Positions 1-4,379 are shown, counted from the stretch's first letter. The stretch: DNA of 64,000 bases from a virus (IMGVR_UViG_3300045988_161728); one strand, 5' to 3'. Notes: generated from the letters alone by a model not told the origin. A program made the numbers and translations.

Positions 1-387
1 CTGAAATGCAATGGTGCAGCATTTTCTTCTGAAAAGTACCCAAATCTGGCAAAGGTTTATCCCACCAATAAATTACCGGATTTACGCGGTGAGTTTATCC
101 GTGGTTGGGATGATGGGCGAGGTGTGGATGCGGGAAGGGTCATCTTAAGCATACAAGGGTGGTTAACAGGAAGTCATTATCATAATATTCGGTCATGGGA
201 CGCGTGGGATAACACGGTATTGGTGCCAAATGACAGAGGGGGGGATAGTCTGTTGTCGACAGATAACGCCGTCCAAGAAGGAGCGATTAATGGTAAATTT
301 ACCAGTCAATACAGAACGGAGTTATCTGGGGGGAATGAAACCCGCCCACGTAACATTGCCTTCAATTATATTGTGAGAGCAGCATAA
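1..387 (+). CDS. Tail-fibre variable C-terminal cassette (Sv'-like), 5' end outside window
   Basis: Frame open from nt 1 (LKCNGAAFSSEKYPNLAK...ETRPRNIAFNYIVRAA); shares conserved head and tail motifs with the C-terminus of the 2026..3855 fibre; stop overlaps next start (TAATG). Confidence 0.7.
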   Translation: MKCNGAAFSSEKYPNLAKVYPTNKLPDLRGEFIRGWDDGRGVDAGRVILSIQGWLTGSHYHNIRSWDAWDNTVLVPNDRGGDSLLSTDNAVQEGAINGKFTSQYRTELSGGNETRPRNIAFNYIVRAA

Positions 388-998
388 TGGATAATGCGAT
401 ATTAAATAGCGAACTTATAGCCATACAGGCAGGAAACATTATCGTTTATAACTATGATGGTGGTAATCGGGAATATATTTCTGCATCAACTGAATATCTT
501 GCTGTTGGCGTTGGTATTCCGGCAAATTCTTGTTTGGATGCTCCAGGCTCACATAAAGCAGGTTATGCGATTCTCCGTTCAGAGGATTTAAGTTCATGGG
601 AGTATGTGCCAGATCATCGTGGCGAAACTGTCTATAGCATTGACACTGGGAATCCCGAAGAAATCACGGTGTTGGGTGACTATCCGGAAAATACAACCAC
701 TATCGCCCCGCTAACACCATACGACAAATGGGATGGAGAGAAATGGGTGGTTGATACTGAGGCTCAACATAGTGCAGCTGTAGATGCAGCAGAAACAAAA
801 CGTCAGTCATTGATTGATACTGCGATGGATTCCATTAGTCTGATTCAGTTGAAATTACGGGCTGGACGGAAGTTGACGCAGGCAGAAACCACGCAGCTTA
901 ACTCCGTGCTAGATTATATAGACGAGCTGAACGCGATGGATTTAACCACGGCACCAGATCTCAACTGGCCTGAAAAACAACTTTCTACAGCCAGTTGA
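387..998 (+). CDS. U: Tail-fibre assembly chaperone (U/Tfa family)
   Basis: 203 aa ORF immediately downstream of and translationally coupled to an Sv cassette; size, position and C-terminal region typical of Mu/P1 U and lambda Tfa proteins. Confidence 0.7.
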   Translation: MDNAILNSELIAIQAGNIIVYNYDGGNREYISASTEYLAVGVGIPANSCLDAPGSHKAGYAILRSEDLSSWEYVPDHRGETVYSIDTGNPEEITVLGDYPENTTTIAPLTPYDKWDGEKWVVDTEAQHSAAVDAAETKRQSLIDTAMDSISLIQLKLRAGRKLTQAETTQLNSVLDYIDELNAMDLTTAPDLNWPEKQLSTAS

Positions 999-1004
999 TA
1001 TAAT

Positions 1005-1511
1005 TAATCCGCCCTCACAATATAATTAAATGCAATATTACGAGGGCGGGTTTCTAAGCCAGCAGTACCTAAATTAGCTACGGACTGTTTATATGTTTTA
1101 AAAGTTCCATAATTAGGGGCTGGCAATCCTGCATCGCTTGTGTTCCCCCATCTGATAACTCCCGTATTACCACTAGTAGCCCATGCCTCGTCAAAGTAGA
1201 AATTAATTGAGCGGTCAGTTGCTACGGTTGATTTTGACGGTAATCCGTGAGCATGATCCTCCGTTGCATATCCTTGCTCGCTTAAAATAGAGCGACCAGA
1301 GTCAATCCCTCGCCCATCATCCCAACCACGGATAAACTCACCGCGTAAATCAGGTAATTTTAACGTTGGGTAAACCTTTGCCAGATTTGGGTACTTTTCA
1401 GAAGAAAATGCTGCACCATTGCATTTCAGCCACCCCGTTGGAGGTGTGGCTGAGGGCCATGGAACAGGTACACCAACGGGCAGCGCCGAGCCTTCTCCTA
1501 AACCAACGTTT
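1005..1511 (-). CDS. Startless tail-fibre Sv cassette (C)
   Basis: 168 codons with no ATG, beginning NVGLGEGSALPVGVPVPWP...LKCNGAAFSSEKYPNLAKVYPT and ending ETRPRNIAFNYIVRAD; same conserved ends as the other Sv cassettes, so it is a silent alternative fibre tip. Confidence 0.5.
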
Positions 1512-1518
1512 TTATGTG
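1493..1518 (-). other. cix/gix-like crossover half-site at start of cassette C
   Basis: TTCTCCTAAACC-AA-CGTTTTTATGTG; left half identical to the site inside S. Confidence 0.4.
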
Positions 1519-2015
1519 GCCCTTACAATGTAATTAAAAGCAACGTTGCGGGGGCGCATTGATATCCATGCCCCGGTAAAATTATCCTCTGCCGTCCTTT
1601 GAGTGCCTGTTATGGAGTTATCTGATGATGCTGGAACATAATCGCTATTATCTCCTGCTTTAGGATTAGCAGGGTTTCCAACAGTTATAACAGAATCAGC
1701 AGTAGCATAAGCGATACCTACTTTGACATTAGTAGTCAGATCGACACCGTAATAATCCTGCAAAGCTGTACGAATAAATGTTGCAGTCTGACCACTTAGC
1801 AATGAACGCCCTGTATCAATCCCTCTCGAATCATCCCAACCACGGATAAACTCACCGCGTAAATCAGGTAATTTTAACGTTGGGTAAACCTTTGCCAGAT
1901 TTGGGTACTTTTCAGAAGAAAATGCTGCTCCGTTACATTTTAGCCAGCCCGTTGGTGGTGTTTCTAAGGGCCACGGAACGGGCACACCAACAGGCAGTGC
2001 AGAGCCTTCCCCCAA
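1512..2015 (-). CDS. Startless tail-fibre Sv cassette (B)
   Basis: ORF-track 'M' is a TTG (Leu) inside the conserved KNVGLGEGS junction; frame is open back to 2036; ends MRPRNVAFNYIVRAT; lies directly after the S stop. Confidence 0.5.
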   Translation of the reverse strand: MGEGSALPVGVPVPWPLETPPTGWLKCNGAAFSSEKYPNLAKVYPTLKLPDLRGEFIRGWDDSRGIDTGRSLLSGQTATFIRTALQDYYGVDLTTNVKVGIAYATADSVITVGNPANPKAGDNSDYVPASSDNSITGTQRTAEDNFTGAWISMRPRNVAFNYIVRAT

Positions 2016-2032
2016 ACCAACGTTTTTATGCC
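2007..2032 (-). other. cix/gix-like crossover half-site at start of cassette B
   Basis: TTCCCCCAAACC-AA-CGTTTTTATGCC; shares the conserved half with the sites at 1493 and 2494. Confidence 0.4.
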
Positions 2033-3855
2033 GCCCTTACGATGTAATTAAATGCGATATTTCGTGGACGGGTTTCACTCCCGCCAGTATTACCAATACT
2101 CCCTCGAGAATGAAGTGTCGGTGATGGAATCAAATTCCCTCCTGTATTTGAGGCATCAAGCCCCCGTCCTTGTGTGTATGTTTTTTTGAAAATTGTCGCC
2201 AGCTCCCATTCATCTTTTGTGTCGTAACCATCATTGGCTACAACAATATGTCGGTGCTTTTCCAGCATTCCTGTCTGAATGCTCAATAAAGCACGTCCCG
2301 CATCCACCCCGCGCCCATCATCCCAGCCGCGAATAAATTCTCCCCGTAAATCCGGTAATTTATTGGTGGGATAAGCCTTTGCCAGATTTGGGTACTTTTC
2401 AGAAGAAAATGCTGCACCATTGCATTTCAGCCACCCCGTTGGAGGTGTGGCTGAGGGCCATGGAACAGGTACACCAACGGGCAGCGCCGAGCCTTCTCCT
2501 AAACCAAGGTAATCAAGAACGCTCTGAATACTGGTCTTACCAAGAATGGCGCGTCCAACACTTGTCAATGCAGTTAACGCGGCACGATCAACACCTGTGA
2601 AATAAGGGAGTTTATCTGCTGCTGTAGCTAGTGCCGCTAGAGCAGTGAGCGTAGCGTCTGCCGCTTGCTTTCCATTAGCCAAATCATATGCAGCCTTGAC
2701 AGCTTTCGGTGTGGCGGCCAGCACTTCGGACGTGCTATTGGTAGCACTGCTGAGTTGGACTATCCCTTTTTGAGCCGTGGTTGCATCCTGGGCTGTATAC
2801 TTCCCGTTAGCCAGGTCATATGCAGCCTTGACAGCTTTCGGTGTGGCGGCCAGCACTTCGGACGTGCTGTTAGTGGCACTACTGAGCTGAGTGATGCCTT
2901 TCGCTGTCAATGAAGCTGTTGGCACACCAGTGATCTGATTCCAGGGATGTGTATGACTGGATGGTGCCTTTCCGGCTGCTAGATCGTATGCAGCTTTAAC
3001 CGCTTTTGGAGTTGCAGCTAATGTTTCAGAAGTGCTGTTAGTGTCGCTACTGAGCTGAACTATCCCTTTTTGTGTCGTGGTTGCATCCTGGGCTGTATAC
3101 TTCCCGTTAGCCAGGTCATATGCAGCCTTGACAGCTTTCGGTGTGGCGGCCAGCACTTCAGACGTGCTGTTAGTAGCACTGCTGAGCTGAACTAATCCCT
3201 TTTGCGTTGTGCTTGCATCCTGCGCCGTATACTTGCTTTTCGCCAGATCGTAGGCTTTTTTAACTGCCAGCGAACTTGCAGCGACATCACTTCTGGTACT
3301 GGTTACAGAGTCGGAAATTTCAATGCCTATCGTGAGATCGATGCGGTCGGATACATCTATCATTTCCTGAGTAATAGCAGATACGCCAGCAGGGATATTC
3401 ACCGTACAAACAAGCAGTTCCCCATCTCCTAACTGATATGAATCGGTATAGGTTCTGGCAACAAATTCAGCCGCATGAATATGTGACGCGGTATTAACCT
3501 GATAAGAATCTTCTCCAAGGAGGTATCTTCCCTTCAGCACAATTGCATATTTCTTACCTGCGCTAAGTGCAAGAGAAATATCCTTACGCTGCTGAATAGT
3601 TACCTGGTAGAATTCACCAATATTCACTGACGCCGCGCCAGCGGTTTTATCACCATCCACTGAGGTGATTAACAGGTTCATTCCACCGCCAGGCTTAGGC
3701 AAGAAACCAGCATAAAATCCCGGGTCAACAATTCCCCTGAATTTTCGGTTTAGAGCGGCTGACAGATATGGTTCGTGGTATTGCACATCAGCCACCAGAG
3801 CCAACGACTCGGGTGATGGGTAAGTAACCGATGTAACAACTGTAACGTCATTCAT
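2026..3855 (-). CDS. S: Tail fibre protein S (constant part fused to Sv cassette A)
   Basis: Probable start ATG at 3855 (MNDVTVV..., AAGGAT RBS) rather than the ORF-track start at 3942; internal fibre repeats (AATPKAVKAAYDLA..TAQDATTTQKGIVQLSS) recur 4-5 times; C-terminal 170 aa match the other Sv cassettes. Confidence 0.8.
   Translation of the reverse strand: MNDVTVVTSVTYPSPESLALVADVQYHEPYLSAALNRKFRGIVDPGFYAGFLPKPGGGMNLLITSVDGDKTAGAASVNIGEFYQVTIQQRKDISLALSAGKKYAIVLKGRYLLGEDSYQVNTASHIHAAEFVARTYTDSYQLGDGELLVCTVNIPAGVSAITQEMIDVSDRIDLTIGIEISDSVTSTRSDVAASSLAVKKAYDLAKSKYTAQDASTTQKGLVQLSSATNSTSEVLAATPKAVKAAYDLANGKYTAQDATTTQKGIVQLSSDTNSTSETLAATPKAVKAAYDLAAGKAPSSHTHPWNQITGVPTASLTAKGITQLSSATNSTSEVLAATPKAVKAAYDLANGKYTAQDATTAQKGIVQLSSATNSTSEVLAATPKAVKAAYDLANGKQAADATLTALAALATAADKLPYFTGVDRAALTALTSVGRAILGKTSIQSVLDYLGLGEGSALPVGVPVPWPSATPPTGWLKCNGAAFSSEKYPNLAKAYPTNKLPDLRGEFIRGWDDGRGVDAGRALLSIQTGMLEKHRHIVVANDGYDTKDEWELATIFKKTYTQGRGLDASNTGGNLIPSPTLHSRGSIGNTGGSETRPRNIAFNYIVRAA
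2494..2519 (-). other. Candidate 26-bp Cin/Min-type crossover site at the Sc/Sv junction
   Basis: TTCTCCTAAACC-AA-GGTAATCAAGAA, an imperfect dyad with a 2-bp core, placed exactly where the constant sequence (..SVLDYLG) meets the conserved cassette head (LGEGS..); resembles the gix/hix/cix family as remembered. Confidence 0.45.
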
Positions 3856-3866
3856 CAAGCATATCC

Positions 3867-4301
3867 TTATGCTGTAGTCGAGTTTATGGCCATAACTGCG
3901 GTATATGTTTTGCCCACATACAGCGAGTCTTCTTGGACACAAATAATGGCGATTGGCTTATTCTCGTTATCCAGAACAACCAGAGTGTTGAATGGGTAGT
4001 TTTTCCCTTCCTGCAACTGACTTTGATCAAGGTCCATTCGGACAGTAATTATCCCGCCTGAGTAGGTTGGGACGAGGTTGATGGTGCAAAATTGACTGGT
4101 CAGTTCTGCCAGATCGAAAGCCTTTGGCAGTTCTCCAATCTCATAAGTGCCATCTCCTTTCTTAGTAACCAGTGAACTGGTACCGAAAACGGCCTTGCTG
4201 ATTAAAAATCGAGAGCCTTTGTTAATGGACGATTCAGCGCGCCGCTGATAGTAATAGTCCAACAACTGACTCTTATAGAGGTTTGTTGAGACGTCAGACA
4301 T
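3867..4301 (-). CDS. R: Tail-fibre associated structural protein (P1 R position)
   Basis: 144 aa ORF immediately upstream of S in the same operon; assignment is positional. Confidence 0.45.
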   Translation of the reverse strand: MSDVSTNLYKSQLLDYYYQRRAESSINKGSRFLISKAVFGTSSLVTKKGDGTYEIGELPKAFDLAELTSQFCTINLVPTYSGGIITVRMDLDQSQLQEGKNYPFNTLVVLDNENKPIAIICVQEDSLYVGKTYTAVMAINSTTA

Positions 4302-4379
4302 GATTTTCCCTAATCAATGTTGTGAAGCCTCATTGTAAGATAAGTAACTTGTCACCCCGCCCTGCGGACGGGGTGATTG

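Follow-up and report, generated by a model that had tools for sequence, protein, structure and literature searches.

The window analysed here, 64,000 nucleotides of viral DNA (IMGVR_UViG_3300045988_161728), begins at positions 1..4350 with a late tail-fibre operon of the bacteriophage P1 type, which is encoded on the minus strand in the order LPs, R, S. An array of alternative tips for the tail-fibre gene S, together with a single gene for a tail-fibre assembly protein (tfa), lies at the 3' end of S and is the subject of this study (Table 1). The surroundings are those of the P1 family: LPs, R, the constant part of S (Sc) and baseplate genes are all present, the DNA of gene R is 93-96% identical to that of P1, P7 and relatives, Sc is 93-96% identical to S of P1, P7 and SJ46, and the window from 40 to 64 kb is 98.5% identical to Punavirus / Escherichia phage vB_EcoM-813R1. 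LPs is the only Lpa-type match near the region. A strict tandem array was not found in Sc by Tandem Repeats Finder; its repeats are interspersed (family D2 of the repeat search).

Table 1 Features of the tail-fibre region and order of cassettes in the window and in five related loci (TFA, tfa; REC, recombinase; + and - give the orientation).
Feature	Position	Strand	Description
LPs late promoter	4332..4350	-	AAGTTACTTATCTTACAAT; identical to the annotated -22 and -10 boxes of P1 LPs; drives R, S and downstream DNA
Gene R	3867..4301	-	144 aa; P1 tail-fibre structure or assembly protein; open reading frame, orthologue in relatives with PF26881 Phage_P1_tail_fiber_R
Gene S	2026..3855	-	609 aa, fused to cassette c; five Phage_fiber_2 repeats and a C-terminal Collar domain
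Sc, constant part of S	2520..3855	-	ATG at 3855; Pfam PF03406 in 5 stretches, E = 5.6e-88
Site A (Sc site)	2494..2519	+	TTCTCCTAAACC-AA-GGTAATCAAGAA; predicted crossover between 2506 and 2507
Cassette c	2026..2505	-	expressed Sv tip, 159 aa from GLGEG; PF07484 Collar, collar domain with HxH (HRH) insertion
Site B	2007..2032	+	TTCCCCCAAACC-AA-CGTTTTTATGCC; outer half overlaps the S stop codon
Cassette b	1512..2018	-	silent, startless, open, 168 aa; Collar, E = 4.7e-15
Site C	1493..1518	+	TTCTCCTAAACC-AA-CGTTTTTATGTG
Cassette a	1004..1504	-	silent, startless, open, 166 aa; Collar, E = 7.5e-15; always tail-to-tail with tfa
tfa	387..998	+	tail-fibre assembly (chaperone) gene of TfaE type, 203 aa; Pfam PF02413 Caudo_TAP, E = 4.7e-30; convergent with the S operon
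Cassette e	1..387	+	3' 128 codons; head and site lie off the window, whose start cuts e at about codon 26
Map of window			e+ TFA+ a- b- c- Sc-
Map of L007			REC- f+ b+ i+ e+ TFA+ a- j- g- c- Sc-
Map of L008			Sc+ j+ i+ e+ TFA+ a- g- REC+
Map of L002			REC- … h+ e+ TFA+ a- Sc-
Map of L106			Sc+ e+ TFA+ a- f- REC+
Map of L114			REC- a+ TFA- e- Sc-

A unit of 276 nt was found by a repeat search in three direct copies (1281-1556, 1795-2070 and 2282-2557; 79-86% identical) and in an inverted one at 1-155/158, which is 85-89% complementary to the others. The original prediction, made by a model from the sequence of the window, had described four tip cassettes with a shared head, and these copies bear it out; since the window begins within cassette e, four is a minimum. 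The two startless cassettes that it had placed on the minus strand are indeed both open, b as 1512..2018; the frame proposed for a (1005..1511) was one base out and runs into stops, and the open frame is 1004..1504. The conserved head is longer than the ~170 bp given there and extends over ~77-81 codons (~235 bp) from the crossover point. The RPRN(I/V)AFNYIVRA tail was found as expected at the end of every cassette frame, where translation gives (E/S)(T/M)RPRN(I/V)AFNYIVRA(A/T/D) followed by the stop codon and where 13-14 residues are conserved. Head and tail are shared by the four cassettes and by StfE of the Escherichia coli K-12 element e14, to which cassette a is 84% identical; the 65-85 residues in the middle are unrelated. 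Next to Sc, the region has four alternative 3' ends, c, b, a and e, each with an open frame; a multiple-inversion system of the Min type is recognised by a constant 5' part together with three or more startless cassettes.

Typing of the cassettes of the window and 16 related loci at a threshold of 90% identity gave ten types (a-j). One metagenome contig with an odd map and the recombinase inside S, which is probably chimeric, was excluded. Cassette e is present in every relative as a full 153-amino-acid type directly upstream of tfa, and the b type occurs in five of the related loci, in both orientations. Within types, the ratio of nonsynonymous to synonymous substitutions (dN/dS) was 0.06-0.23 overall (0.23 for b and 0.07 for a), including types never seen expressed in the plasmid sample. 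The cassettes are under purifying selection.

The junctions between the cassettes were analysed next to the crossover sites of P1. The original prediction had located 26-bp sites at the cassette heads, one of them within S, and this was found; B and C, however, are not half-sites, as had been thought, but sites of the full 26 bp with a degenerate outer half that is made up of the last codon, the stop codon and a 5-nt spacer of the preceding cassette. The comparison with P1 cix that had been proposed gave a match of site A to cixR (TTCTCTTAAACC AA GGTATTGGATAA) at 21 of 26 positions, and in the P1 record the annotated cix crossover falls within the AA at the centre. The core motif AAACCAANGT occurs four times in the 64 kb, with 0.74 occurrences expected, and three of these are sites A, B and C. 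The core AA is present in all three and in 90 of 90 sites from 14 related loci, as it is in Din-type sites of 26 bp. The outer halves of these sites fall into three classes only: the Sc class (GGTAATCAAGAA), the terminal class (CGTTTTAGTCTT) next to the recombinase, where the site reads …AAGACTAAAACG-TT-GGTTT…, and the internal class, which is the tail of the previous cassette. The form of site B is the commonest internal form (25/66). Positions 4 and 7 of the cassette-side half are variable; this half travels with its cassette and combines with every outer class, and six cassettes are found attached to the Sc outer half among the relatives. Since three outer classes meet variable cassette-side halves in this way, the exchange point would lie within a few bases of the core. 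Such a pattern is expected from strand exchange at the core and agrees with the annotation of P1 cix.

Related P1-like plasmids contain the same cassettes, 2-9 per locus, in differing order, orientation and fusion to S. Maps of 16 loci and more revealed an invariant core e-tfa-a in which a lies tail-to-tail with tfa; the cassettes are all in plus orientation on one side of this centre and all in minus orientation on the opposite side. The two ends of the locus are occupied by Sc and by a 190-amino-acid recombinase. Depending on the plasmid, the cassette joined to Sc is a, c, d, e, i or j. About half of the loci have tfa in the orientation of S; in the others the two genes are convergent. Judged from the maps, this layout is what inversion between oppositely oriented sites would preserve. 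By the topology of inversion, a or e can reach Sc only as the sole cassette on that side, and this was observed: the fusion of Sc to a was seen only in the three loci in which a is the only S-side cassette (L002 among them), and that of Sc to e-tfa in L106 and L114. At least two further tip types (N25 and N26), beyond a-j, were found in arrays of the IMG/VR collection that adjoin a min gene.

The recombinase of the relatives is a serine invertase with a PF00239 Resolvase and a PF02796 HTH_7 domain that is encoded next to the terminal site. It is identical to the UniProt entry Q05517_ECOLX ('DNA-invertase'), 82% identical to PinE of e14 and 74% identical to Cin of P1. Its gene starts 55-90 bp from the terminal site (55 bp in NZ_CP103764.1, where it is transcribed away from the site) and contains an enhancer-like stretch, identical to the P1 cin enhancer at 58 of 72 positions, in the equivalent position of the gene. 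Beyond min, NZ_CP103764.1 (2424..2715) and relatives have a truncated cin remnant (psi-cin) that points towards min and is ~87% identical to the 5' region of P1 cin with its promoter; such a remnant is said to have been described for p15B as well.

The closest known system is Min of plasmid p15B (E. coli 15T-; sequence X62121), on which Sandmeier, Iida and Arber are reported to have published in 1990-1992. Alike are the P1-like backbone with LPs-R-Sc, several startless Sv cassettes each with a 26-bp site, tips that resemble those of e14, and a Pin-like invertase at the far end that is transcribed away from the array, as in the relatives of the window. One relative that shares cassettes with the window, pMCR_SCKP-LL83, has nine cassettes, one tfaE and one pin; for this region Zhou et al. 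(PMC5786510) reported 99% identity to the min region of p15B at a coverage of 92%, and the invertase of a P1-like plasmid was found to be 98.5% identical to p15B Min (PMC6906374). The link from the window to p15B runs via pMCR_SCKP-LL83 and Q05517. Specific to the isomer in the window, as compared with p15B, are the complement and order of the cassettes, of which e, a, b and c are visible, and an Sc with only five repeats. The preferred explanation, with a probability of about 90%, is that a P1-family phage-plasmid has here a multiple-inversion array of the p15B Min type, which makes up the variable end of its tail-fibre operon. The original prediction had likewise favoured a p15B-like system over the two-state C segment of P1, and it is supported by the Din-family sites, the cassettes permuted among relatives, the serine invertase adjoining the terminal site and the identity of the pMCR_SCKP-LL83 region to p15B min.

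In the proposed mechanism, each cassette would be a C-terminal receptor-binding module preceded by a 26-bp site of the Din family, with the sites on the S side pointing one way and those on the recombinase side the opposite way. The serine invertase Min, with its enhancer inside its own gene, would pair one site from each side and exchange the strands at the central AA, whereby everything between the paired sites would flip. By repeated inversions any cassette could be brought to Sc, in frame (…LDYL-GLGEG…), and read from LPs, and the central unit e-tfa-a, which has no internal site, would flip as a block. In the present isomer S would end in tip c, b and a would be silent downstream and e-tfa would face the operon. 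Min may be active in this particular element, and the crossover may take place exactly at the predicted point.

What is exchanged was deduced from the fold of the tip. A Collar domain (PF07484) was found in every cassette. The match of cassette c to the structure of the T4 gp37 tip, an intertwined trimer (2XGF; E = 6.7e-18), falls into two pieces: positions 15-106 of the chain are covered by the head and its last 24, which end in NIAFNYIVRLA, by the last 24 residues of the cassette. In the numbering of gp37 these are residues 799-890 and 1003-1026. Domain D10 of gp37 (811-881 + 1010-1026) has the collar fold and the needle domain D11 is inserted in it (PMC6957217). Since the two pieces cover both halves of D10, head and tail of a cassette are the halves of one collar domain; judged from this alignment, the tip would be a split collar with the variable middle as the projecting, receptor-binding insertion. 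An HxH motif occurs directly behind the head in cassettes a, c, e and i, at the place of the first iron-binding HxH of gp37; g, h and j have DAI(R/Q)NI instead, as does the solved fibre 9cuy (DAIRNI, chain 9cuy_c), and b, d and f have neither. The insertion is longer in gp37 (~128 residues) than in the cassettes, six of which (b, d, f, g, h and j) are, unlike gp37, without HxH; moreover, gp37 uses gp38 and gp57A, whereas the window encodes a protein of the TfaE type. With the crossover site immediately before the collar, every cassette comprises a folding unit in full.

The product of tfa scores 104.8 bits against Caudo_TAP (cut-off 22.1) and its gene lies directly downstream of a tip, as is typical of the family, so that a role as chaperone is predicted. 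The ATG of tfa overlaps the stop codon of cassette e (TAATG), from which translational coupling is predicted, and its end is five bases from the stop codon of cassette a on the opposite strand. The original prediction had taken this plus-strand gene for U'. The protein is, however, not significantly similar to U or U' of P1 (BLASTP against P1 U, E = 0.11) but 78% identical to TfaE of e14. That there is one chaperone gene for four tips was correct, as a tblastn search of the window gave one tfa, but this is not peculiar to the window: exactly one full tfa is present in every Min-type locus examined, whether it has 2 or 9 cassettes. As a side observation, one related locus (L014, 10900..11226) encodes a 108-residue Caudo_TAP_N fragment inside the array, which may be the remnant of a second chaperone. 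At least 24 long contigs encode the identical Tfa protein, and it is found with repertoires of 3 to 9 cassettes. In e14, TfaE follows the a-like StfE; in the window, tfa is coupled to e, and a faces tfa and has no chaperone gene of its own. Since an identical Tfa goes with 3-9 cassettes and the coupled tip is a different one in e14, a generalist chaperone for collar-type tips is favoured, and the single TfaE-type protein most likely has this function and may be promiscuous.

The expression of tfa would depend on orientation. In roughly half of the isomers, the one in the window included, the central invertible unit places tfa, which is part of it, antisense to the late S operon. Convincing terminators between the cassettes were not found and, therefore, read-through to tfa in the co-oriented state is plausible. 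A candidate promoter for tfa, CTGGCA-16-TAAAAT (9/12 match), which lies inside some heads, was discarded because it needs a polymorphic codon (TLK vs TNK) and is unlikely to be a dedicated one. If tfa has no separate promoter, inversion would switch the tip and, together with it, the supply of a chaperone by the phage itself; competence of the fibre would then be phase-variable or reliant on Tfa of a resident prophage (e.g. TfaE of e14), or most collar-type tips would fold without Tfa. We regard this as possible but doubtful.

Several observations weigh against a functional Min array in this element. Inversion in this element is inferred from the comparison between plasmids, and a tblastn search with Cin and Min gave no Cin-like recombinase in the 64-kb window; its gene would be situated beyond the window start. 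The dyads of B and C are poor, with 5/12 matches in the outer half (A, 7/12). In the isomer of the window, late transcripts from LPs would run antisense through tfa; a promoter of the Lpa type was not found on the tfa strand, and matches of the sigma-70 type on that strand were no more frequent than in shuffled sequence. The P1cin promoter of psi-cin in NZ_CP103764.1 is damaged (-10 TAAAAC instead of TAAAAT). With no such promoter found on the tfa strand, a generalist chaperone would have no evident source in the convergent orientation. Finally, the recombinase side has been lost in at least one relative: in NZ_LR890200.1, IS26 cut cassette e and removed everything through min, which locked the element with Sc fused to a and tfa convergent, a natural locked isomer.

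This last case leads to the first alternative, that the window is a locked relic in which cassettes and sites are intact but the invertase has been lost, for instance by an insertion sequence or a deletion to the left of e, so that the fusion of S to c is fixed. The window has no recombinase and begins inside cassette e, the same cassette that is cut by IS26 in NZ_LR890200.1, and truncated or altered invertase genes have been described in P1-like plasmids (PMC6906374). On the other hand, min adjoins the array in 8 of the 10 loci with an identical Tfa (the other two are NZ_LR890200.1 and a record that ends before the far side), a start within a repeated head is a typical break of short-read assemblies, and a recombinase such as Pin of e14 could act in trans. 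Fixation of the present isomer is, thus, unlikely, and a working Min array remains the preferred reading.

General homologous recombination between the ~235-bp heads and the 40-bp tails could, in principle, shuffle cassettes as well, without any site-specific invertase. Exchange inside the heads does occur: a polymorphism at head codons ~18-21 (WPSAT or WPLET; window 1440..1460, 1955..1975 and 2440..2460) assorts independently of cassette type among the related loci L001-L016, and types b, c and j each occur with both versions. This independence suggests homologous exchange or gene conversion inside the heads besides site-specific crossover, and the number of cassettes, which varies from 2 to 9, could be explained in the same way. 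It does not account for Sc and terminal outer halves that are joined to varied cassette-side halves right at the invariant AA, nor for the all-plus/all-minus layout, which site-specific inversion preserves, and a dedicated invertase with an enhancer adjoins the array in relatives. Homologous recombination as the sole process is therefore very improbable.

Equally hard to believe is that the cassettes are small independent genes for 'phage tail proteins', started from internal TTG or GTG codons, rather than exchangeable 3' ends of S. The automatic PGAP annotation lists separate coding sequences, and the open reading frame 1512..2015 can start at TTG. The frames, however, begin exactly at the crossover sites, the heads duplicate S from …GLGEG, neither an ATG nor a Shine-Dalgarno sequence precedes them, and a collar domain without shaft could not attach to the baseplate. 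The p15B work (Sandmeier 1991) reportedly described the assembly of one variable gene, which also counts against independent genes. That the array consists of decayed tandem duplicates of the S 3' end without any role, which was one of the refuting outcomes named by the original prediction, would fit the lack of start codons and ribosome-binding sites and the label 'hypothetical' given to some of them by PGAP, but it is excluded by the dN/dS values, and it is contradicted by the three complete frames of the window, all open from site to conserved stop, by sites conserved to the base next to variable middles with 46-60% identity and by the occurrence of the same types as expressed tips in other plasmids.

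Other inversion systems share some features with the array. The Pin/P segment of e14 has the similar invertase, StfE and TfaE described above and an identical cassette head (GLGEGSALPVGVPVPWPSATPPTGWLKCNG), but it is one invertible segment with two tips and two chaperone genes (stfP-tfaP facing tfaE-stfE), whereas the window has a single tfa for four or more tips. In e14 the a-like tip precedes the chaperone gene; in the window it faces tfa. Cin/C of P1 and Gin/G of Mu are similar in the position in the operon, in Sc, in the 26-bp sites with AA core and in an invertase with intragenic enhancer. P1, however, has two long (~500 residues) tips, Sv and Sv', of an unrelated type (GLRELGTSGEK…), each with its own chaperone (U and U'), two sites and two states, and cin is transcribed towards the segment. 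A two-state C segment of the P1 type was rejected on account of at least three directly oriented sites on one side, a single tfa and tips unrelated to P1 Sv. The shufflon of R64/IncI1 (Rci, pilV) also uses multiple inversions that fuse alternative 3' cassettes to a constant 5' part and thereby change recipient or host specificity, but with the tyrosine recombinase Rci, 19-bp sfx sites and a pilus adhesin, whereas the relatives of the window have a serine invertase and Din-type sites. A shufflon of this kind was discarded because of the 26-bp cix-like sites and the PF00239 + HTH_7 enzyme of the relatives, and a diversity-generating retroelement because of the types of site and enzyme.

Some further observations were made on S and on the assemblies. 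Among relatives with the same Tfa, S is 609-974 residues long, due to differing numbers of Phage_fiber_2 repeats; S of the window, with five, is the shortest version seen and a singleton in a collection of 15 billion proteins. Eleven IMG/VR contigs end at S residue ~451-460, which is the crossover site. Evidently, assemblies are interrupted at this repeat or invertible junction, and the start of the window inside a repeated head probably has the same reason. In NZ_CP103764.1 (3487..7431), c and d have two copies apiece, one to either side of the centre (d+ c+ e+ TFA+ a- b- c- d-); the duplication may be genuine or an artefact of assembling a mixed population of isomers. Six IMG/VR contigs without P1 Sc have multi-cassette arrays in prophages that are not P1-like, with a recombinase 95-97% identical to Min, a single tfa and tips c, d, e, h and i plus new ones, and e14-like versions with two tfa genes were found in three loci.

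The region is matched, at least in part, by 548 plasmids of PLSDB and by 1,620 of 5,426 complete E. coli genomes. In PLSDB, ~181 plasmids have min and the terminal site and ~176 have the P1 cin end and cixL, so that the Min type equals the classical Cin type in frequency. The array is an intact and widespread host-range switch, known in kind and nearly in sequence, and ordinary rather than new; the sole feature unique to the window is the particular S fusion of 609 residues with five repeats and tip c. The findings leave the understanding of DNA inversion systems unaltered. Their weight lies in the biology of the P1 family: the array sets which bacteria a P1-like phage-plasmid can adsorb to, and since P1-like elements transduce DNA and carry resistance genes (mcr-1, blaCTX-M), their host range is of practical importance. 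The catalogue of cassettes is also a list of natural, exchangeable receptor-binding modules for the engineering of P1-based delivery particles.

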